Shown here one piece after another: positions 10,386 through 37,100 of a stretch of DNA of 37,100 nt (position 1 is the first letter of the stretch; each line of letters starts with the position of its first letter). The notes below the pieces were generated by a model. It did not search any database and had not been told where the DNA came from. It worked only from the letters and a program-made list of their open reading frames with translations. A program made the translations under genes and the position numbers. The DNA is taken from the IMG/VR virus record IMGVR_UViG_2718218139_000003, one strand, 5' to 3'. Source of the DNA: a virus (taxonomy: Duplodnaviria; Heunggongvirae; Uroviricota; Caudoviricetes).

Positions 10386-10964
10386 TTATTGTGGGGCGAC
10401 TGGCCACTCAACATCCGCTGCTACCGCTGTATTAACACGATTCAACAATACCCGGTATGTCTTCCATGCAGCCAGTAACGATGCCTCTTCCTCCGTTGCA
10501 ATATCCAAATCTACGGCATCCTGAAGTGGCGCAATATGCTCGCTGGCTACCTGCATCAGGCTGTTTTTTGTTTCTTCCGCCTCCCTTATCCGAAACAGTT
10601 TTTCTGCTTCTGCATCTTTCACCCAGGATGTGCCGTTCCACTTCTGATACTCTCCATCCGGCGACAACCAGGTAACATTTTCCGGTAATGGACCGAGTTC
10701 AGAAATAAATAACGAGTCCCCTGATGCCACGTCATAAACCGTTTTACCCCGATGGTCTTCAACGAGATGCCACGATGCCTCATCACTGTTGAAAACGGCC
10801 ACGAAGCCAGCCGGAATATCTGGCGGGGCAATATCGGTACTGTTTGCAGGCAGACCTGTATGAGGTGGAATGTATGCATCACCTTCACCAATAAACTCAT
10901 TGGTTCCGGTCAGTAGATTATAAATTTTTATGGTCCGTGATTGTTCACTCATTCTGAATGTCAT
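10386..10964 (-). CDS. G: Tail fibre assembly protein (P2 gpG / Tfa-like)
   Basis: 192 aa directly downstream of the tail fibre gene. Confidence 0.75.
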
Positions 10965-17091: not shown

Positions 17092-17480
17092 GCCGGATAG
17101 GCTCCGTGTGGTAACTGAAAATGCGGTCCGTCTTTCAGGGTCTTCCAGTCGCCGCCCCATTCCACCGGAATATTCAGTTCCCGGCTGGCCTGTCTGAATG
17201 CTGCTGCGATTTTTTCGTACAGCGGCCATTCCCATGACACCTGGCTGCCGATATAAGCCACAACATCCACGGCATGTCCCGTAAGGTGGCGGCTGTTCAT
17301 GGTCTGGCTCTTACCTGTGGCCACAAGTTGCTTCTGGCGGTAACGGCTGCGCAACCCTTCGGTGATACCAAAATCCACTTCCGAAATTTCCAGTGCCCGT
17401 CGGGTCACTTTCACCAGATCAGGATTTACGCCCTGCAAATTCTTTTCGCTCCGGCTGCTGAATTTAAATGTGTTGCTCAT
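17088..17480 (-). CDS. Endolysin, peptidase M15-type (L-alanyl-D-glutamate / D-Ala-D-Ala peptidase fold)
   Basis: 130 aa; SRHLTGHAVDV motif characteristic of zinc peptidase M15 endolysins; located in the lysis cassette. Confidence 0.7.
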   Translation of the reverse strand: MSNTFKFSSRSEKNLQGVNPDLVKVTRRALEISEVDFGITEGLRSRYRQKQLVATGKSQTMNSRHLTGHAVDVVAYIGSQVSWEWPLYEKIAAAFRQASRELNIPVEWGGDWKTLKDGPHFQLPHGAYPA

Positions 17481-17800
17481 TCGTCCTTCTCCTTCACCCT
17501 GCGATTAAAGGCCGCAATAACCTTGTCGCGTGCTTTCTCTGCACCCATAAAACCGATTGATGCGCCGATAAACGTCACGGCATCTTCAGGAAACCCGAAG
17601 AAGCGCAACGACCCGGCCACGGCCATGGCAAGAACGCCGCACGCCAGCGATCCCGTTACGGTCTGAACCAGTGTTCGTCCGTCATAAAGACTCATCAGCG
17701 CGGAAATGCTGACTGCCGCGCCTACTGCATACACCGTTGGCAGGTGGTCAAAGAGCCATGCAATAACCTGCTCTGTGATCCCTGTTTGAATGGTGCTCAC
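17477..17800 (-). CDS. Holin (two predicted TM helices); GTG start at 17800
   Basis: Small protein with two hydrophobic helices and charged C-terminus immediately upstream of the endolysin. Confidence 0.55.
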   Translation of the reverse strand: MSTIQTGITEQVIAWLFDHLPTVYAVGAAVSISALMSLYDGRTLVQTVTGSLACGVLAMAVAGSLRFFGFPEDAVTFIGASIGFMGAEKARDKVIAAFNRRVKEKDE

Positions 17801-17802
17801 TG

Positions 17803-18003
17803 CTACTCCCCCCACAACTGAATCATTTCTCGTTTCTTCTTCTCCGGCTCCGGCATCTCCACTTCCTGCCCGGCGTCCAGAAATACCTGCTGACAGAGTC
17901 CGGGGTTGGCATCCAGCACCTTTTCGGTGACGCCCTGCGTCGTGCCGTAGAACCGGAAACAGAGCGAATCCACGGTGTCGCCTTCCTGTGCCTTCACTTT
18001 CAT
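17803..18003 (-). CDS. X: Tail protein X (P2 gpX-like)
   Basis: MKVKAQEGDTVDSLCFRFYG... small protein between L and the lysis genes. Confidence 0.65.
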   Translation of the reverse strand: MKVKAQEGDTVDSLCFRFYGTTQGVTEKVLDANPGLCQQVFLDAGQEVEMPEPEKKKREMIQLWGE

Positions 18004-18506
18004 CAGCACAACTCCGCAAAGATTCGCGGGCGGCACAGAATGTCAGAGATGGCCCAGCTCACATCGCGCCACAAATCCGATGTCTGTATATCCAGTGCGT
18101 CCGCCCGGCGGTCGCCCTTGTCCGTTGTGTCCGCATCGCGGTAACGCTCCAGAATCAGGGCGCGTGTGGCGGTGTAAACCGCATTGCGCCAGTGCCAGAG
18201 ATTGACGCTTTCTCCGTTAATTACGGGTGCCGGAACATCGGCCAGCGTCTGATGGCCAGCCGTCTGCTGTTCCTGCTGCCACGCTTCCAGCTCGCGGGTA
18301 ACGTGTGCCACGGCCCCGGTGGCGGTATGCAGCAGGCGGGAGGTGGTCACACGGCCCGGCAGTCGTATCGCCAGACGCAGCTCACGCAGCACAATATCCG
18401 GCCAGAATGCACCCGCTGAAATACGGGTATCACCATCATCGGTATCGGTGATGTCGTCCTCTGCGGGTCCGGGGTTGGTTCTGGCAACCATACTCATGGG
18501 GTTCAC
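18003..18506 (-). CDS. L: Head completion/stabilisation protein (P2 gpL-like)
   Basis: 167 aa; synteny. Confidence 0.7.
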   Translation of the reverse strand: MNPMSMVARTNPGPAEDDITDTDDGDTRISAGAFWPDIVLRELRLAIRLPGRVTTSRLLHTATGAVAHVTRELEAWQQEQQTAGHQTLADVPAPVINGESVNLWHWRNAVYTATRALILERYRDADTTDKGDRRADALDIQTSDLWRDVSWAISDILCRPRIFAELC

Positions 18507-25406: not shown

Positions 25407-25814
25407 TTATCTTTTATAGCCTTGCCCCTTCCTGGCCAGCGCCCTGATGGCCGGGCGTGCCAACACCATATTTTGGCAATGATGAATTGCCCGGCAAAAT
25501 TCATCTCTACCCATTGGATGCTCAACTGGCAACGTTAAATACAGGTTCCATGCGTCGCCTAAAAGTTGGGCTATCTTTTGTTCTTCAGATGTCAGCAAGC
25601 AAGCGGTATCCGTAAAATAATCATACTTTTCATGTATGTTATTTAACGGTTTTGTCTGTAGTGCAGCCTGAGCTATACGGTATGCCTGAAGCATACTGGC
25701 GTCGTTGATATCCATTCCGAACGGAATTTCTGATGATTGTGACTCTGCATCTTCAAGCCTGGCAATTTCTTTACGTAAGAAGTATTTCAACTCTTGTTTC
25801 TGTTTTCTGTTCAT
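25407..25814 (-). CDS. Hypothetical protein, 135 aa, translationally coupled (4-bp overlap) to the upstream zinc-ribbon gene
   Basis: ORF with ATGA-type overlap; no recognised motif. Confidence 0.5.
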
Positions 25815-26143
25815 GCGTTTTTTTCCTTTTTGTCTGTCACTTCTTTCCTGATAATTTCATTGCACAAATCCACGCACTCATTGCAGATGTAAACAGACGG
25901 TCCGGCAATCACCTTTGTGACTTCGTACTGGGATTTATTGCAGAAACTGCAATAAACCGTCTTCTCGCCTGAAGTCCATGTTTTGCTGGTTTCGCCAGAC
26001 ATCAGTTGTTTGAGGTCTTTTTCACGACGAAGAACTATCTGGCCACATTCAGCTATTTTTTGGATGTTGACATTTTCTTCTTTCGCCAGCGCTTCCATCC
26101 GCTCAATCAGTCGCTGCGCTTTTTCTCTGTCAATGTGTTGCAT
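25811..26143 (-). CDS. Small protein with a C-terminal ClpX-type C4 zinc-binding domain (ZBD-like) fused to an unrelated helical N-terminus
   Basis: Residues about 63-100 [40 protein letters not shown] nearly match the ClpX N-terminal zinc-binding domain as I recall it ([39 protein letters not shown]); strong RBS aaggggga. Confidence 0.7.
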
Positions 26144-26522: not shown

Positions 26523-27482
26523 TTACTCCTTGTCCATTGCGTACAGCCCATTAACCAGAGCAAACTGTGGCACCCCGTCCGCGATGAAAGTCGCATTAAC
26601 TCCGCAGGCTTCGCGGATAGCGGGTGCCACAATCTCCGCTCCGCCACCGACAACCATCACCCGCCCGTAACCCGAAAAACCCGCCAGCGCGCGGATCACG
26701 CGTTGTTTCAGTGTTTCTTCCTTTTCACGAATAACCGCCATCAGGCTGGCGTAATGCGCGTCATTGTGGATGTGCTGGCGCAGCCAGGCTTCATCATGGC
26801 GATGTTCGATAATGGTATTGGCGATGTGGTGACTGGTACGCATACCGTTAGTGGCCATCACCGACAGTACGGCATCGGCCATCAGGGAAACGCCTACGTG
26901 TGGATCGCAAAACACCTGGCTGATACCTGCCAGTTGTCCCTGAACCTTTGCCACATCCAGCGTGGTTCCGCCCAAATCCACAATCAGCAGGGATTCAAAC
27001 GGACTCATGTCAGCCAGTGCCTTAAAGCCAGCCGGAATGGATTCAGGCATAACCCGTACATTACGGATAGTGAATGCCTTACCGTTCTGGTACTCCACCG
27101 GGCGCATGACGTTCGCTTTTTTGCGGTTGATGTTGGCCATGTCCGGCTGTGCGTTTGTGTCGAAATACTCGCTCAGTGGCAGGGTGACAACCACATCCAC
27201 TTCCTGTGGTGTGATGCCTGATTTGACCAGCGCGTGATGAATGGCAATTACATTCACATCGCTGTACTGGTATTGCGTGTCGGTCGTCTGGACAAAGCGA
27301 TCGCTGATCGGATCAAAACCATAGCGCACGCCATCAAGCATGTAGTTCGCAGGCTGTGAGCCACCGAACGGCGCAGACCATTCCGACTTGAAGCTGTTCG
27401 GGCTGATGGCGTTGCGGCGTTCGCCGTTCTCAGTCCATGCCAGCTTGATGTTGGTGGAGCCGTCGTCGATACAAATTTTCAT
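26523..27482 (-). CDS. ParM/StbA-like actin-family segregation ATPase (319 aa)
   Basis: N-terminus MKICIDDGSTNIKLAW and downstream ISPNSFK, FDPIS, YSDVNVIAIHHAL...EVDVVVTLPL blocks parallel plasmid R1 ParM (MLVFIDDGSTNIKLQW...). Confidence 0.75.
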   Translation of the reverse strand: MKICIDDGSTNIKLAWTENGERRNAISPNSFKSEWSAPFGGSQPANYMLDGVRYGFDPISDRFVQTTDTQYQYSDVNVIAIHHALVKSGITPQEVDVVVTLPLSEYFDTNAQPDMANINRKKANVMRPVEYQNGKAFTIRNVRVMPESIPAGFKALADMSPFESLLIVDLGGTTLDVAKVQGQLAGISQVFCDPHVGVSLMADAVLSVMATNGMRTSHHIANTIIEHRHDEAWLRQHIHNDAHYASLMAVIREKEETLKQRVIRALAGFSGYGRVMVVGGGAEIVAPAIREACGVNATFIADGVPQFALVNGLYAMDKE

Positions 27483-27512: not shown

Positions 27513-27626
27513 GTTTACGGGATTCTGAAATCCCGTTTTTGCCTGTTTTGTGCGCGCTTCATATATCGCTGCGCGTTTTTTGCTCATTTACGGGATTCGT
27601 GAGTCCCGTTTCTGTCTGTTTTTTGT
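27513..27626. repeat. Two about 41-bp direct repeats (27513-27553 and 27586-27626), each with the inverted repeat ACGGGA-N8-TCCCGT; candidate parC-like centromere/operator
   Basis: Seen directly; located immediately upstream of the ParM-like gene. Confidence 0.5.
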
Positions 27627-28268: not shown

Positions 28269-28332
28269 TGAGGTAGCCTGAGTTTAACGGACACTCCTTC
28301 CTGAAATAGAATGGCATCAGAAGGAGCTAATA

Positions 28333-28635
28333 ATGAGCAGAAAAACCCAACGTTACTCTAAAGAGTTCAAAGCCGAAGCTGTCAGAACGGTTCTTGAAAA
28401 TCAACTTTCGATCAGTGAAGGCGCTTCCCGATTATCTCTTCCTGAAGGCACTTTAGGACAATGGGTTACCGCCGCCAGAAAAGGGCTCGGTACTCCTGGT
28501 TCCCGCACGGTGGCTGAACTGGAATCTGAAATTCTGCAACTGCGTAAGGCGTTAAATGAAGCTCGCCTTGAGCGAGATATATTAAAAAAAGCAACAGCGT
28601 ATTTTGCACAGGAGTCGCTGAAAAATACGCGTTAA
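28333..28635 (+). CDS. IS600-like transposase OrfA; A AAA AAA -1 frameshift site at 28584-28590
   Basis: Identical protein to 4384-4686. Confidence 0.8.
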   Translation: MSRKTQRYSKEFKAEAVRTVLENQLSISEGASRLSLPEGTLGQWVTAARKGLGTPGSRTVAELESEILQLRKALNEARLERDILKKATAYFAQESLKNTR

Positions 28636-28670
28636 TCGAACAATGGCGACAACAATTTCCCATTGAAGCG

Positions 28671-29489
28671 ATGTGTCAGGTATTTGGTGTATCCAGGAGC
28701 GGTTATTACAACTGGGTACAGCATGAACCCTCAGACAGAAAACAAAGTGATGAGCGGCTAAAACTGGAGATTAAGGTGGCACATATCCGCACTCGCGAAA
28801 CATATGGAACCCGGCGGCTCCAGACGGAGCTGGCAGAGAATGGCATCATCGTTGGTCGTGACCGACTGGCACGTCTTCGTAAGGAGCTAAGGCTACGCTG
28901 TAAGCAGAAACGCAAGTTCAGAGCGACTACGAACTCGAACCACAATCTGCCAGTTGCGCCAAATCTGCTGAACCAGACGTTCGCTCCTACAGCACCAAAT
29001 CAGGTCTGGGTGGCGGACCTGACGTATGTTGCCACACAGGAGGGATGGTTGTACCTCGCTGGCATCAAAGATGTTTATACGTGCGAAATTGTCGGCTACG
29101 CCATGGGAGAGCGCATGACAAAAGAGCTGACAGGTAAAGCCCTGTTTATGGCGCTCAGGAGCCAGCGCCCACCTGCCGGGCTAATCCACCACTCTGATCG
29201 AGGTTCACAGTACTGCGCATACGATTACCGGGTCATACAGGAGCAGTTTGGTCTGAAAACATCAATGTCGCGTAAAGGTAACTGTTACGACAACGCTCCG
29301 ATGGAAAGCTTCTGGGGAACGCTGAAAAATGAGAGCCTGAGCCACTATCGTTTTAATAACCGGGATGAAGCCATCTCAGTAATACGGGAATACATTGAGA
29401 TTTTCTACAATCGTCAGCGTCGTCACTCTCGTCTGGGGAATATCTCCCCGGCAGCCTTCAGGGAAAAATATCATCAGATGGCTGCTTAA
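28671..29489 (+). CDS. IS600-like transposase OrfB
   Basis: Identical protein to 3530-4348; frame open from 28572, overlapping orfA in -1 frame. Confidence 0.8.
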   Translation: MCQVFGVSRSGYYNWVQHEPSDRKQSDERLKLEIKVAHIRTRETYGTRRLQTELAENGIIVGRDRLARLRKELRLRCKQKRKFRATTNSNHNLPVAPNLLNQTFAPTAPNQVWVADLTYVATQEGWLYLAGIKDVYTCEIVGYAMGERMTKELTGKALFMALRSQRPPAGLIHHSDRGSQYCAYDYRVIQEQFGLKTSMSRKGNCYDNAPMESFWGTLKNESLSHYRFNNRDEAISVIREYIEIFYNRQRRHSRLGNISPAAFREKYHQMAA

Positions 29490-29532
29490 AAAAAGAACAA
29501 ATGGTAGTGTCCGCTATTGCCAGTACACCTCA

Positions 29533-31648
29533 GTGCTGGCCGTTCTTCCGGCTGTTCTGTCCCGTTGTTGTCCGTTTCCTGTACACGAGGACAGTTATTG
29601 CCACGAGTCCAAGGGGCGGCAGGGCCGCCCTGAAGGTCAAAACCATTTTCGCGGGCGCTGTCTTCCACTTCCGGTTTACGTCTTACCAGCTTCCAGTTAT
29701 CCGGATGCGTGCACACACGGGAGGATTCCCCGATGAATGGCGACCAGATCCCGTAAATCTGTACACTCTGTTCGCCGTAATCGTTCAGCTCATCTGCGAG
29801 GTCGTAGGCGGTGCGAATCAGGTAGTCCTTGCGCGGAACAAGTACGCCACCCTGTTTTTCAATGTAGGTGGCAAAACATCCGGCATCAGCGGCAGCGAGT
29901 ACCGCATCCATTGCGTCATCCTTCAGCCGTTGCGGGCCTTCCGGGTTGCGTGCCATCTGGCTGGCAAGGCGGCGGAGTTCACGCCACACCTGACGGGAGG
30001 GGATGCCAAAGAACTGGAACTGGCGGACCCGGTGAAGGCGCGCCCAGCCGATGGCGCGCTCCACACTCTCGGCCATTGATTTACCTGTTTCGTGTTCAAC
30101 GCGTGGCTTGCCCGTTTTCGGGTCGATGCCATCCACGGCACGGCTGTCCAGGTTTTTCCCTATGTAGGTGGCGATGTAGCTGGTCGGTGTGCCTTTTGAG
30201 CCGTCGACGTACTCCGCCTTAAAGCGTGGGGTAATATCATCACCCAGCTCGTGACGATCTTCCTGAATGGCAATATCGCGGGTGTGGGACACAATGGTGT
30301 CGATTTCTTCCGGATGTGCAAAGACCATCATATGCCAGTGCACGGTGCCGTCATGGTGAGGCTCCACCGTGCGGATGCCATACCAGCGCAGGCCGTCGCG
30401 GTTCAGTTTCTTGCGGACCGCCGCAAAAAACGTGTTAACCAGGTAATCACTGGAGTCGCGCATGGTGGCCCCGTTCCATTTGGGATTCGGATGACCGTTC
30501 TCTGTTGTGGCGTGGTATTTTGACGGGCAGGTGACAGTCAGAAACACCGCTCTGTCGCCACGGGCTTCGGCCAGAAGTTCCAGCCCCTTCATGGTGGCCA
30601 TCATTTCTGCCTTACGGTGAACCGGGTTACTTACTCCCGCGTAATACACCGTTTCGAGATCAATCGTGAACCCATCTTCATTTTCCAGCATGAAACTTTT
30701 CAGGAAATCGCGTGTTTTCTCGCGCTGTGCGCGAAACTCGCTTAACGCGTCCTGGCTCAGATAGGGTGATGTTTTTCTGGAAACCAGACAGGCGGCGCGG
30801 AGTTGTTCTTCTCTCCACTCGCAACGTAACAGCCACAGTTTGCGTTTCCACCATTCCGCACAGGTCAGGCGAAGGATTGCGCCCGGCAGCAGCTCCGTGT
30901 CCGGTTCGTTCCTCCGGTCTTTGTCTGTTGTCAGTGCGTCATAATGCGGAGGCATGGCGTGCAGGTGTAACGCCATGCGGGCCAGCATTTGATACGCCTT
31001 CAGCGTTACATCCATGGTCAGCTCGCCATCAGTCGCGCCAAAGCCATCGCAGAGTTTTTCGAAGGTGCTGCTGAACATCGCCGCCGTCATGGTGGCCAGC
31101 GTCTGTATCTGGTGCTTGTTGAGCTGCGGCAGGTAAAGCAAATCGTCCAGGCGTTCGCGTCCGGCAAGGGAGCGATAACCCGGTGTCAGCCAGCGGTGGT
31201 CGGTGCGGTCCAGACGTTCGAATATTTTGCGCAGGGTTCCGCGCGCGTAGCGTTCAGCCTGCCAGCTCTTTTTGCCTTTCCGGCGATCGGCTTCCTGTTT
31301 TTTGCGCAGGAAGGAGAGGTGGCGAATAAGCGGATCGCGCAGATAGGACGGCAGCAGGCGCAGCGAGGCCATGGCTTCATCCACCGCACCGCGTGCCTGT
31401 TTTCTGGCGTCTCCTGCCAGTGTGATGGTTTTGTCCTGTTTTTCCTGTGCGTCCAGGCTTTTATTAATCAGGTTGCCCAGCGGCGTGGCGGAGAATGCCG
31501 CATCAGCCATTTCCTGGCGGCGCTCGTTCTCTGCCCGGTAGGCATCCAGCCAGGAGGAAAGCGCGGATTCAGGAGCGGGGATCCCCGTTCCTTCACGCCC
31601 CACTGCGTGGCGCGGTTGTTGCCAGTCCCTGATGTACTCTGCCGTCAT
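29533..31648 (-). pseudogene. A: Rolling-circle replication initiation protein (P2 gpA-like), N-terminal 705 codons; interrupted near the 3' end by IS600
   Basis: HUH-type motif HDGTVHWHMMVF; size about 766 aa when rejoined with 28084-28268. Confidence 0.75.
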
Positions 31649-32092: not shown

Positions 32093-32323
32093 TTAATGGA
32101 GTTTGTTTTGCTGCTGGATGAGATCCTGAAGAGACAGGAGGTCTTCCGCCAGATAGCTGAATACAGCGGCGCAGTAGTCGGCTGAAATAGTGCTGTTGAG
32201 TCTGTGCAATGTGTTGGATTGCATGATAAAGGCGATGTGTGCGGCGCGGGTGAGTCTGCGATCGATTTCAGTCTGGATGTGACGACGCTCCGCGATAGCG
32301 CGGTGCTGTTTGCGGTTTGCCAT
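32093..32323 (-). CDS. Hypothetical early-operon protein, 76 aa
   Basis: ORF in operon context. Confidence 0.4.
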   Translation of the reverse strand: MANRKQHRAIAERRHIQTEIDRRLTRAAHIAFIMQSNTLHRLNSTISADYCAAVFSYLAEDLLSLQDLIQQQNKLH

Positions 32324-32644
32324 GGTGTGGCCTCTTTGCTAGTAAGTTTTGAAAACTCACCATCCAGAGCTGCGAAACTGTGGGTGGCGAGACGTACGAG
32401 GTTCGCAGTACCGGCTAGCAAAGAACCCGGCCCGACCGAAGTCGGCCCCGTACGCCCCGCCATAATTCGTGTGCGAAAAAGACGTGGCAATACAGTACGC
32501 ACAAAAAAACCGCTGGCGCGGTTGTGCGCTTTGCTAGTCAGCAGGCTGCGAAACCCGGCACCCGTTTTATGAGGTGCAGCGGGAATGTAACCTGACTGAT
32601 TGCGGCATGGCAAGCGGTTTTTTGTGTGTGCATGTTCTGGTTTC

Positions 32645-33430: not shown

Positions 33431-33847
33431 CTATGCGTTAAATACGGCACGTTGCGCGTCATCAATGAATACAGCTTGAGAGCGTTCTATCAGGCGGAGA
33501 TTTGTCAGAAGCTCTGACTCTTTTGTGTGGTAAGGCGTTATCAGGTATTTGCCGTGCAGTTCGGCAATAATGGTGTATCGCAGCATCATTGCTGAACCAA
33601 GAATATAAATGCAGCGTCCAATGCTGGACGGATTCATGGCTGCAACTGTTGACTGTGTTTTAAGAGTGTCGATTTCTTTGCTCTGTTCCTCAATAATTTT
33701 GGCTGCTTCAGAGGTGGCTATTGCGATGGTCAGTGCGTAAAGCGCTGCCATATGTTGATTATCTTTCTGGGCTGCCCTGGACAGCTTGTCTTGCTCTGCT
33801 GACACTATTTTTAATGTATTGATAATATTTTTTTCTTTTGCGTTCAT
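33431..33847 (-). CDS. Hypothetical coiled-coil protein, 138 aa
   Basis: ORF; AT-rich codon usage suggests acquired gene. Confidence 0.45.
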   Translation of the reverse strand: MNAKEKNIINTLKIVSAEQDKLSRAAQKDNQHMAALYALTIAIATSEAAKIIEEQSKEIDTLKTQSTVAAMNPSSIGRCIYILGSAMMLRYTIIAELHGKYLITPYHTKESELLTNLRLIERSQAVFIDDAQRAVFNA

Positions 33848-33939
33848 TTTATATCTCCGTTATTTACGTGTGCGAATACCTCCGCGAATGCGGATAGTTT
33901 TCAGGTTTTCGGGTTTAATCTGGTGTTTTGTTTAAGCTG

Positions 33940-34053
33940 TTATTTGTCAGTGAAAAAGCGTTCAATCTTTTTTACTGAATGAATAATTCGCATAATCCCA
34001 ATGGCGCAGGCCACCGAAATAATCAGAACAAGCCATGAGATAAATATACTCAT
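33940..34053 (-). CDS. Small hydrophobic peptide, 37 aa (MSIFISWLVLIISVACAIGIMRIIHSVKKIERFFTDK), translationally coupled to the upstream gene
   Basis: RBS GGGGA 7 nt before ATG; ATGA overlap with the stop of 34050-34292; single predicted TM helix. Confidence 0.4.
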   Translation of the reverse strand: MSIFISWLVLIISVACAIGIMRIIHSVKKIERFFTDK

Positions 34054-34292
34054 GCGATATTCCCCAGCTTATACGGTTTAATGTGTTCCCCGCATTCTGC
34101 GGCACAGATCAGCTCGGAAAGTTCGTTAAGTGCATCCAGATCATCAGCGTAAAAAGCGACGTCATACAAACTCCGGATTGCCCTGGTCAATGAGTCACGG
34201 GCTGCACGTTCAGCATGAGCGCCTGATGCACTTAAGCGAAAATAAAATCGTTCAAGTGCTTTATTAATGAGAGTTTTATATTCTTTGCCCAT
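34050..34292 (-). CDS. Hypothetical early-operon protein, 80 aa
   Basis: ORF in operon context. Confidence 0.45.
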   Translation of the reverse strand: MGKEYKTLINKALERFYFRLSASGAHAERAARDSLTRAIRSLYDVAFYADDLDALNELSELICAAECGEHIKPYKLGNIA

Positions 34293-34303
34293 CGCAACGC
34301 CCT

Positions 34304-34642: not shown

Positions 34643-35078
34643 CCGTGCGAAGTGCTTCGTATAATGTGAAATCCTGCCCGAAGTGATTGTCGCCGCAGCT
34701 CAATGCAAAAATGCGGTTTCCGGTAAACGGATTGCGTGGGCATTTGTGGACCACGATTCCAGCTTTCTCAATCAGCCAGGCATGCTCGCCGATTTGTTTT
34801 ACAGCGTGGCCATCCGGTGTTGCGTGTGTTTCGCTCAGGCTGTAGCGATAGTTGCTACGCGATGCACTGGTAGCGAAACGGTTAGCATGGCGTTCCGCCC
34901 CGTTGCGGAAGCGTTGCTGTGAAGAATTGCACTGTTGCTTCATGTCAAAAACTCCGTACCTATTTACTTCCCCGGCATAACGCCCATTTTCAAAGTAATT
35001 GCGACGAAATCCCGTGTTATGTGGCTTGCCATTTCGCTGTTGCTTATTCATTTTTCGCGCCTCTACCCGATGAGCCAA
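34593..35078 (-). CDS. Hypothetical early-operon protein, about 161 aa; occupies the position of P2 replication gene B
   Basis: ORF; position third in the early operon. Confidence 0.4.
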   Translation of the reverse strand: MAHRVEARKMNKQQRNGKPHNTGFRRNYFENGRYAGEVNRYGVFDMKQQCNSSQQRFRNGAERHANRFATSASRSNYRYSLSETHATPDGHAVKQIGEHAWLIEKAGIVVHKCPRNPFTGNRIFALSCGDNHFGQDFTLYEALRTVDRLLRGQSFIKQADL

Positions 35079-35269
35079 ATAACAAACGCCATGAGCACCG
35101 CGCCAATGGTGATCGGAAAAAGACCTCTGGCATAAGCGGCGAGGTAATGAACGTTGAGAACAATAAAGCGTTCTTTTTGTCCTGTTAGCTTGCTAAGCAG
35201 ATAAATCGCTATTACACCCACTTCTAGGAACACAAGGTCCAAAATGGCGCTGGTGATATTGCTGGTCAT
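35063..35269 (-). CDS. Small membrane protein, 68 aa (two hydrophobic helices)
   Basis: ORF; hydrophobic composition. Confidence 0.4.
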   Translation of the reverse strand: MTSNITSAILDLVFLEVGVIAIYLLSKLTGQKERFIVLNVHYLAAYARGLFPITIGAVLMAFVIWLIG

Positions 35270-35275
35270 TTATGA

Positions 35276-35563
35276 TTAAAGCCCCAGCCACAACAACCAG
35301 GCATCGCGGCGTTCTTTCGGCTGATCAAAAAACGCTTTGCGCATACCTGCGTTAAATGCTGGCAGATATACCCAGTTTTCTGATGCTCGCGTCTTCACTG
35401 AACCTGGTTTCACAAAGTCAATCGTTGGTAACTTTGCAGCGTCAATCATGGTTCTGACGGTTGATTCTTTGCGACCAATCATCTTGGCAAATAGTTGATA
35501 TGGCACCGCTTCAAGTGGATATGGTGCTACCTGAATGAACCCCTCAAGCTCTGATTCGCTCAT
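35276..35563 (-). CDS. Cox/Apl-like small DNA-binding regulator (first gene of early operon)
   Basis: 95 aa, divergent from the repressor gene; helix-turn-helix-like AKMIGRKESTVRTMIDAAKLP. Confidence 0.5.
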   Translation of the reverse strand: MSESELEGFIQVAPYPLEAVPYQLFAKMIGRKESTVRTMIDAAKLPTIDFVKPGSVKTRASENWVYLPAFNAGMRKAFFDQPKERRDAWLLWLGL

Positions 35564-35660: not shown

Positions 35661-35999
35661 GTGGAGTTTAGATCACATATGATCCATAAATCAAGCCTTG
35701 GAGAAAAACTTCGCCTGATTCGAGAGGCAGAGGGATTGTCACGTAGAGAGATGGAAGAGGTGACAGGGGTATCTCAAAACAATCTCAAAAATTATGAAAT
35801 ATTGGGAAGAATGATACCTGGAGAAACGCTACTCCTGATTTTGAATCATCCTCGTTTTCGGAAGTATTCGGATTGGGTGATGTTTAATCAAACTAATGCT
35901 GCGACGGGGCAGATTGCTCCGCCTCTCTCTCTTGATGGCTTCTTTGATTCGGAGGGCGATCAGGTTTCAACCGAAACAAACCAAAAATCACCCCGCTAA
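35661..35999 (+). CDS. Immunity repressor (P2 C-like, XRE-family helix-turn-helix)
   Basis: HTH LGEKLRLIREAEGLSRREMEEVTGVSQNNLKNYE; located upstream of the integrase and divergent from the early operon. Confidence 0.65.
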   Translation: MEFRSHMIHKSSLGEKLRLIREAEGLSRREMEEVTGVSQNNLKNYEILGRMIPGETLLLILNHPRFRKYSDWVMFNQTNAATGQIAPPLSLDGFFDSEGDQVSTETNQKSPR

Positions 36000-36080: not shown

Positions 36081-37100
36081 TTGGAGGGCTTCGCAATGTC
36101 AATTAAGAAGCTCGAAGATGGTCGTTATTTGCTGGACATCAGGCCGAACGGACGCAAGGGAAAGCGCGTGCGTAAGGTATTTGACAAAAAATCGGTAGCG
36201 GTGGCCACTGAACGCTACATCATGGCGAACGCTGAAAAGCGGGAATATATACAGGGCTACCGTGATCGCCGAACGCTAAATGATTTGCTTGAGTTGTGGT
36301 GGATGTATCACGGTCAACATAGGCGTAAGGCGGAAGAAGACCGAAAACAACTGCGCAACATAATCAATGAGCTTGGCGCTGATATGCAGGCTGTGGATCT
36401 TGATAAGCTGAAAATTATCGCGTGGCGTTCTCAAAAGATAGCTGTTGGATTGAAACCGTCATCTGCTAACAGGTACATGAATCGGTTATCCGGAATGTTT
36501 ACCGTGCTGAAAAAAATAGGTCTTTGGGATGCAGAACATCCGGTAAGGGGAATTTCTATTCTTTATGTATCTCCACGAGAAATGGCGTTCCTGTCACAGA
36601 AGGAAGTGGCGCTATTGCTCGATACACTGGAGGGCGACTACTGGCGTGTTGCGCTTTTGTGTTTAAGCACAGGGGCGCGCTGGAGTGAAGCCTGTAAGCT
36701 TCGTGGTGAACAGATAGTTCATAACCGTGTAACGTTTCTTGAAACCAAAAATGGCCGAAAGAGAACAGTGCCAATTTCGCAGGCAGTTTGTGAGGCGATC
36801 AAAACCAGAGAAACAGGCGGCTTGTTTGAGGTGAAGTACCGGGAATTCTGCTTGGCGCTGAAAAGAGTTAAGCCCGATTTACCAAAAGGCCAGGCTGCAC
36901 ATGTGCTGCGGCATACGTTCGCCAGCCATTTTGTGATGAACGGAGGAAACATTATTGCGCTTCAGAAGATTCTTGGCCACGCAACCATTCAGCAAACAAT
37001 GGCATATGCACATTTTGCACCGGATTACCTGCAGGATGCGGTGGCCCTTAATCCGCTGAAAGGTGGCGTGAGTGTCCACGCAGTGTCCACGGGGGATTAA
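36081..37100 (+). CDS. int: Tyrosine site-specific integrase
   Basis: C-terminal catalytic region AHVLRHTFASHFVMNGGNIIALQKILGHATIQQTMAYAHF (R...HxxR...Y); adjacent to repressor at the prophage end. Confidence 0.8.
   Translation: MEGFAMSIKKLEDGRYLLDIRPNGRKGKRVRKVFDKKSVAVATERYIMANAEKREYIQGYRDRRTLNDLLELWWMYHGQHRRKAEEDRKQLRNIINELGADMQAVDLDKLKIIAWRSQKIAVGLKPSSANRYMNRLSGMFTVLKKIGLWDAEHPVRGISILYVSPREMAFLSQKEVALLLDTLEGDYWRVALLCLSTGARWSEACKLRGEQIVHNRVTFLETKNGRKRTVPISQAVCEAIKTRETGGLFEVKYREFCLALKRVKPDLPKGQAAHVLRHTFASHFVMNGGNIIALQKILGHATIQQTMAYAHFAPDYLQDAVALNPLKGGVSVHAVSTGD

Follow-up and report, generated by a model that had tools for sequence, protein, structure and literature searches.

A conserved 37-codon gene overlapping a DUF4754 gene in the putative early operon of P88-like prophages encodes a predicted single-pass membrane protein

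In the P2-like phage 186, two small, non-essential and mutually overlapping early genes, fil (75 aa, a cell-division inhibitor) and dhr (66 aa, an inhibitor of host replication), are found between the switch and the replication genes of the early lytic operon, just before the terminator tR1. Among small hydrophobic proteins of bacteria, the type I toxins (Hok/Gef, TisB, Ldr, Ibs, ShoB, DinQ, and ZorO) consist of 19 to 50 residues, with one hydrophobic helix and a charged end, and act at the inner membrane, while the Escherichia coli proteins AcrZ, MgrB, MgtS, Blr, and CydX are single-pass proteins of 30 to 50 residues that act by binding a larger membrane protein. Phages also encode superinfection-exclusion functions, often small, quick to evolve and restricted to one family. 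Annotation routinely overlooks small membrane proteins or gives them no more than the label "hypothetical", and phage-encoded ones with a known target are few. Our search of the literature retrieved nothing relevant on DUF4754, on the 37-aa peptide described below, on small membrane proteins of P2-like early operons, or on fil and dhr of phage 186.

The window analysed here, that is, the whole stretch of 37,100 nucleotides of IMG/VR record IMGVR_UViG_2718218139_000003, holds what we identify from its gene content as a P88-like (Xuanwuvirus, Peduoviridae; P2-like) prophage in an E. coli-type chromosome segment. Among named phages, P88 and its relatives come closest to it. At the left end of the window lies a gene for an MFS transporter, accompanied in matching genomes by yfcJ and flk. 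The genes for an HTH (C-type) repressor (35661-35999) and the integrase (36081-37100) lie on the plus strand. Divergent from them, a series of minus-strand genes starts with Cox (35276-35563) and continues with a 68-aa ORF (35063-35269), DUF4761, a 92-aa ORF, DUF4754, and the 37-aa peptide; 3' of the peptide come a 138-aa ORF, a 67-aa ORF, a MarR-type winged-helix protein, a 99-aa protein with a weak, sub-threshold Ead/Ea22 match, a "derepression" protein, a 121-aa ORF, and replication gene A (Phage_GPA). Judged by gene order, the minus-strand genes from Cox to A make up the early lytic operon, and the placement of the peptide within it, as proposed in the first-pass annotation, was borne out, since the peptide gene shares the strand of this series from which repressor and integrase diverge. 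The 68-aa ORF between cox and DUF4761, a RefSeq hypothetical protein with two hydrophobic segments, matches no family and has a same-length counterpart at the equivalent position of a distant locus (L170, 2926-3132), and could be the second small membrane protein encoded in this early operon.

Other parts of the prophage deserve a brief description. Just upstream of the 76-aa "derepression protein" gene (32093-32323, minus strand), matches at Rfam gathering score were obtained for the C4 antisense RNA (32380-32467, minus strand; 82.8 bits) and for isrK (32503-32577, minus strand; 65.5 bits). Together with the derepression gene, they resemble an antirepressor module under RNA control, here in a P2-like prophage, in contrast to phage 186, whose tum gene is controlled by LexA. 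Two IS3-family copies of 1264 bp, 100% identical and in inverted orientation (3487-4750 and 28269-29532), each hold a 100-aa HTH_Tnp_1 ORF and a 272-aa rve ORF, and the right-hand one cuts replication gene A in two. Nucleotides 29486 to 31648 hold the N-terminal part of gene A (720 codons), and the rest of the gene would stop at 27559, leaving the 77 nt to parM that are also seen in intact relatives; added together, both parts come to about 2826 nt, versus 2823 nt in O157 strains. Because of this interruption, the prophage is probably replication-defective. Directly downstream of gene A lies the gene for a ParM actin-like segregation protein (26523-27482, minus strand; PF06406 and PF21523), adjoined by a 110-aa ORF (25811-26143, minus strand) whose O157 counterpart position is annotated as "plasmid partitioning/stability family protein", and from these matches the pair is read as partition machinery of the plasmid type within a P2-like prophage. 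Next to the tail-gene end of the prophage, Rfam IS009 is matched over its full length (10423-10621, minus strand; 192 bits).

The 37-aa ORF occupies nucleotides 33940 to 34053 of the minus strand, with an ATG start and 37 codons followed by TAA, and encodes MSIFISWLVLIISVACAIGIMRIIHSVKKIERFFTDK. Its ATG (34053-34051) overlaps the TGA stop codon (34052-34050) of the preceding 80-aa DUF4754 gene in an ATGA motif (34050..34053, minus strand; tcat on the plus strand). Both the coordinates and the overlap reported in the first-pass annotation were thus recovered, and the junction proved to be conserved in related loci, as detailed below. A Shine-Dalgarno-like GGGGA (34061..34065, minus strand) is located 8 nt before the ATG, within the Leu-Gly-Asn codons of DUF4754. 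Its anti-Shine-Dalgarno duplex energy of -5.5 kcal/mol lies between the extremes computed for the other operon genes (-3.8 to -10.7), and an energy of -5 or better is reached at about 16% of arbitrary positions in the region. For this reason, the description of the site as a good ribosome-binding site mildly overstates the case for the window; the site is present and moderate, acceptable rather than strong. The ATGA overlap is the better argument for coupling.

The peptide had also been described as unannotated, which holds only for the ORF track available at that stage, as public records already call it. In RefSeq E. coli genomes it is predicted by PGAP as WP_000021655.1 ("hypothetical protein"), in the phage P88 record it is gp07, a "membrane protein" (YP_009113050.1), and its UniRef name is "Prophage membrane protein". 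It is, then, a well-supported gene call already in public annotation and not a discovery, and, as a small phage membrane protein, it is of a familiar kind. The peptide is 84-95% identical over residues 1-37 to its counterparts in P88, Citrobacter phage Shae_phiSM, Xuanwuvirus P884B11, 520873, and vB_EcoM-569R5, with differences only in the last residues (...FFTDK in the window versus ...FFTGE, FFSDE or FFTEE in relatives). Members of the P88 gp07/WP_000021655 family occupy the same position, with a 4-nt overlap with the end of DUF4754, and the window peptide belongs to this family both by its full-length similarity and by its overlapping position behind DUF4754. The exact sequence sits in a 33-member 90% cluster and occurs on at least 1000 contigs. 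An exhaustive HMMER (phmmer) search of 1.84 billion cluster representatives returned nine clusters, all of the peptide's own family, and no match was found in Pfam, PHROG, NCBIfam, PADLOC or the PDB sequences. For three divergent types (L164, L166, and L170) the genomic context was checked, and each was found behind a DUF4754-type gene. Of 5426 complete E. coli genomes, 1364 contain a match to the 1.3 kb surrounding the ORF, and in 794 this match extends over 80% or more of that length. One contig labelled as a Firmicute, Vagococcus sp. WN89Y NZ_JBQPOM010000071.1 (L004; 226 kb), has a DUF4754 gene with 96% identity to that of the E. coli prophage, and probably reflects assembly contamination or mislabelling.

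In order to assess conservation, loci were gathered from IMG/VR, species-representative genomes and annotated records, with DUF4754 as the anchor; as the initial IMG/VR scan yielded only 99%-identical loci, diverged queries were then used to capture variation. In total, 164 related loci, each with an intact 80-codon DUF4754 gene, were counted. Lack of conservation in homologous regions had been named in the first-pass annotation as a reason to abandon the ORF; an ORF of at least 30 aa from the overlapping start codon is in fact kept in 164/164 loci, the junction being ATGA in 163 and GTGA in one. In 150 loci the encoded peptide has the same 37-aa length as in the window; nine loci encode 45 aa, three 30 aa and two 41 aa. 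Among the 107 distinct sequences of the two-gene region, codons 2-37 of the peptide harbor 28 synonymous and 33 non-synonymous variants for 25.0 synonymous and 83.0 non-synonymous sites, giving an omega of 0.35 (binomial P = 7.8e-5), with an excess at third codon positions (17/11/33 variants at the three positions, respectively). The same count gives 0.37 for DUF4754, and in pairwise comparison the two genes have mean pN/pS values of 0.28 (peptide) and 0.20 (DUF4754). In the remaining two frames of this strand, omega is 1.1-1.2 and stops have been acquired; one of them is the alternative 47-codon frame at 33962..34105 (minus strand), which the window itself leaves open. On the antisense strand, no frame runs through the ORF without interruption; the wobble-sharing antisense frame mimics the selection signal, as expected, but is closed by stops. 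The 37-aa frame is thus conserved and is a real gene under purifying selection.

Most of the loci are 90-99% identical in DNA, and the sequences, drawn mostly from E. coli, show little diversity, so that the co-occurrence of DUF4754 and the peptide partly reflects shared descent. Two distant modules from E. coli prophages (L166 and L170) extend the range. Their peptides are 57% and 47% identical to the window peptide (50-57% over the first 30 residues), while their 80-aa gene products are only 36% and 33% identical to the window DUF4754. Both keep the ATGA overlap and display a stronger Shine-Dalgarno motif at the same place (GAGGAG or CAGGAGG). Variation at the C-terminus follows a pattern of its own. 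The nine 45-aa variants (L006, L039, L065, L080, L081, L083, L093, L096, and L038) arise from a one-base length change in a T-run at codons 33-34, which shifts the frame into an unrelated polar tail, and the three 30-aa variants (L125, L155, and L156) end after ...SVKKD. As the transmembrane helix and the KK motif are retained in all these 45-aa and 30-aa variants, the last seven residues (31-37) appear, on this comparison, to be dispensable or plastic, and replaceable.

As the first-pass annotation had it, the product is a hydrophobic peptide with one transmembrane helix, predicted here from hydropathy and from an AlphaFold model. The predicted transmembrane segment spans approximately residues 3 to 21 or 24, followed by a basic tail (residues 22-37) encoded, like the segment, within 33940..34053 on the minus strand. 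Residues 3-21 have a mean Kyte-Doolittle value of 2.68 and a simple Hessa insertion sum of -2.9, which is favourable, and the tail RIIHSVKKIERFFTDK has a net charge of +3. AlphaFold models the peptide as one continuous helix (residues 2-35; pLDDT 90). The predicted product is a 4.3-kDa single-pass inner-membrane protein. Under the positive-inside rule, the basic tail is expected on the cytoplasmic face. Across 60 distinct family members, M1, S6, W7, I11, and I24 are invariant and S13, C16, A17, G19, R22, and K28 almost so; inside the helix, nearly every substitution exchanges one hydrophobic residue for another. A conserved interaction face on the helix was also considered, and we make no claim for it, the 100-degree periodicity of variability along the helix being non-significant (permutation P = 0.37).

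The partner gene, always located 5' of the peptide gene, encodes an 80-aa protein (34050..34292, minus strand) that matches PF15946 over its full length (Pfam E = 1.5e-53). It is predicted to be soluble, the model (pLDDT 88.5) being a three-helix bundle with helices at residues 4-23, 25-48, and 52-66, and structure and profile searches returned only generic helical-bundle or repeat matches. Neither its fold nor its charge offers anything specific pointing to peptide binding; an electrostatic pairing of an acidic DUF4754 with the basic tail was considered and set aside, as DUF4754 is near neutral (-1.3). A programmed frameshift fusing the two proteins was likewise rejected, there being no slippery heptamer at the junction. 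Nine "DUF4754" calls of 103-128 aa (P0016, P0019, P0020, P0026, P0030, P0031, P0036, P0047, and P0051) are frameshift read-throughs into the peptide region; they lie mostly in the non-coding alternative frame and come mostly from single, often short SRA or metagenome contigs, and, judged by these features, they look like indel errors.

Overall, the best explanation of these data, to which we assign a probability of roughly one half, is that the peptide is a real single-pass membrane protein forming a DUF4754-coupled accessory module of early lytic growth. According to this explanation, the peptide would be produced only upon firing of the early lytic promoter. Ribosomes ending DUF4754 at the UGA would re-initiate at the overlapping AUG, aided by the embedded Shine-Dalgarno motif, and such termination-reinitiation would deliver DUF4754 and the peptide in a fixed ratio. 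Residues ~3-24 would then cross the cytoplasmic membrane, leaving the two-residue N-terminus outside and, by the positive-inside rule, the R22/K28-K29 tail in the cytoplasm. As one half of a two-protein accessory module, the peptide might tether or present DUF4754 at the membrane, or bind a host inner-membrane protein. The module would serve to tune the physiology of the host at an early stage of lytic growth, a non-essential "takeover" function like that of fil and dhr of phage 186. Because the helix is better conserved than the partner and the pair is never separated, we tentatively favour, from these comparisons, a specific protein-protein role over non-specific membrane damage.

A more specific version of this explanation, which we put forward tentatively and hold to be possible, is that of a new coupled module in which the peptide recruits DUF4754 to a specific host inner-membrane protein, or inhibits that protein directly. 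Candidate targets would be a divisome, transport or quality-control component. If this were true, a latent regulator of a host membrane machine, silenced by the repressor, would be present in about one in four complete E. coli genomes, and a defined host target would both add a phage takeover mechanism and give DUF4754 a function. In any case, the peptide is a common, selected gene outside described families, locked to a second domain of unknown function.

The main rival explanation is that of a stand-alone membrane-damaging peptide, similar to a type I toxin, which would depolarise the membrane or arrest growth upon induction with no need for a partner. The first-pass annotation had pointed to a toxin-like or host takeover role, which, by analogy, is a plausible guess. 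In size, in its single, very hydrophobic helix (as predicted) and in its charged tail, the peptide does resemble toxins of the Hok, TisB, Ldr, and DinQ type, and silencing by the prophage repressor in the lysogen would make an antitoxin unnecessary. However, it bears no sequence relation to these toxins, the exhaustive phmmer search having returned only its own nine clusters, and Pfam, NCBIfam, and PADLOC no toxin homology. No Rfam family was detected at gathering score over or beside the ORF that could represent an antisense RNA antitoxin, and no sigma-70-like site was seen on the opposite (plus) strand across 33940-34300, in a consensus scan that is crude and that a weak or atypical promoter could escape. 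Furthermore, type I toxins are independent units with a structured 5' leader, whereas the peptide has no promoter of its own and its start overlaps the preceding stop inside a long operon. Early depolarisation would presumably harm the phage's own replication, and the strict pairing with DUF4754 would be left unexplained. On balance, we regard a stand-alone toxin as rather unlikely.

Less probable still is a superinfection-exclusion or injection-blocking protein, expressed early, like T4 Imm/Sp or HK97 gp15, that would stop the DNA of a later phage at the inner membrane. A small (predicted) inner-membrane protein expressed early by a temperate phage would suit such a function. Nevertheless, the peptide gene belongs to a lytic operon switched off by the immunity repressor and, being silent in the lysogen, cannot protect it, so that the fit is poor; moreover, neither PHROG, PADLOC nor the exhaustive HMMER search revealed homology to known exclusion proteins of the T4 Imm/Sp or HK97 gp15 type.

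The sequence immediately downstream of the peptide bears on a further explanation. A hairpin with a 5-bp stem and a 4-nt loop (TCCGC-ATTC-GCGGA; 33881..33894, minus strand) is located 45 nt 3' of the peptide stop codon. Its stem is perfect in 150 of the 164 related loci, with double-compensatory variants in 32 (TCCGT/ACGGA) and 5 (TCTGC/GCAGA) loci, while the loops vary freely. The hairpin marks the border between the conserved cox-to-peptide module and a variable downstream cargo, the sequence diverging just past it, and it sits in the place taken by tR1 in phage 186 and, in P2, by a putative terminator behind gene B. A role in ending transcription of the operon, as an intrinsic terminator, was rejected, since the hairpin is terminator-like only on the plus strand, where a T-run follows, with no U-tract on the mRNA (minus) strand, and since its folding energy is unremarkable (z-score ~-1). 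On the opposite strand, a promoter-like site (33799-33828, plus strand: CTGACA, 16-nt spacer, GATAAT; 10/12 matches) is found within the 138-aa gene, at its 5' end, and faces the plus-strand hairpin, so that an antisense RNA of ~60-70 nt over the ribosome-binding site and start of this gene could be produced; the promoter scan yielded fewer promoter-like sites than expected by chance, and this site is only a lead. The conserved, compensatory hairpin at the module border, placed like tR1 and the P2 terminator, would fit a regulatory leader or upstream ORF, the mere translation of which would control the hairpin and hence read-through into the variable cargo. Such leader peptides and attenuators are recognised by an unconstrained peptide and a stop codon within ribosome reach of the RNA structure, whereas here the amino acids are under purifying selection with conservative substitutions, the 45 nt between stop and hairpin are more than a terminating ribosome could span, and the hairpin is devoid of a U-tract on the mRNA strand; we thus consider a leader function highly improbable. 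Equally improbable is a non-functional ORF, kept open by the youth or low divergence of the region, or masking a real gene in another frame, for while the high DNA identity of most loci and the open 47-codon frame would allow it, the omega of 0.35 set against 1.1-1.2 in the alternative frames, which gain stops, the retention of the ORF at 47-57% identity in the diverged modules, and the indel-like nature of the frame-fused "DUF4754" calls (103-116 aa) speak against it.

Returning to the explanation that we prefer, a membrane protein coupled to DUF4754, the known systems compare with it as follows. Holins and antiholins are likewise small phage membrane proteins with a charged C-terminus, but they are encoded in the lysis cassette under late control, whereas the peptide is an early-operon product, encoded at 33.9 kb, for which neither Pfam nor PHROG gave a holin match. 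The lysis cassette of this prophage (holin, PF05106, within 17477-18019, minus strand; endolysin, PF13539, 17088-17480, minus strand; and a LysC-like spanin) occupies the minus strand of the late region at ~16.5-18.0 kb, 16 kb from the peptide. The small proteins AcrZ, MgrB, MgtS, Blr, and CydX share no homology with the peptide in the HMMER search and, unlike these, the peptide is phage-encoded; by analogy, binding of a larger membrane protein in the manner of AcrZ or MgrB would nonetheless, in our view, be its most likely mode of action. The fil and dhr genes of phage 186 differ in that they have no sequence similarity to the peptide (being absent from the HMMER matches), in that they overlap by 14 nt and not by ATGA, and in that the 186 record gives no membrane role for either of them. 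As small genes set between the switch and the replication genes of a P2-like early operon, they offer, for a putative takeover role of the peptide, the best positional and logical analogue.
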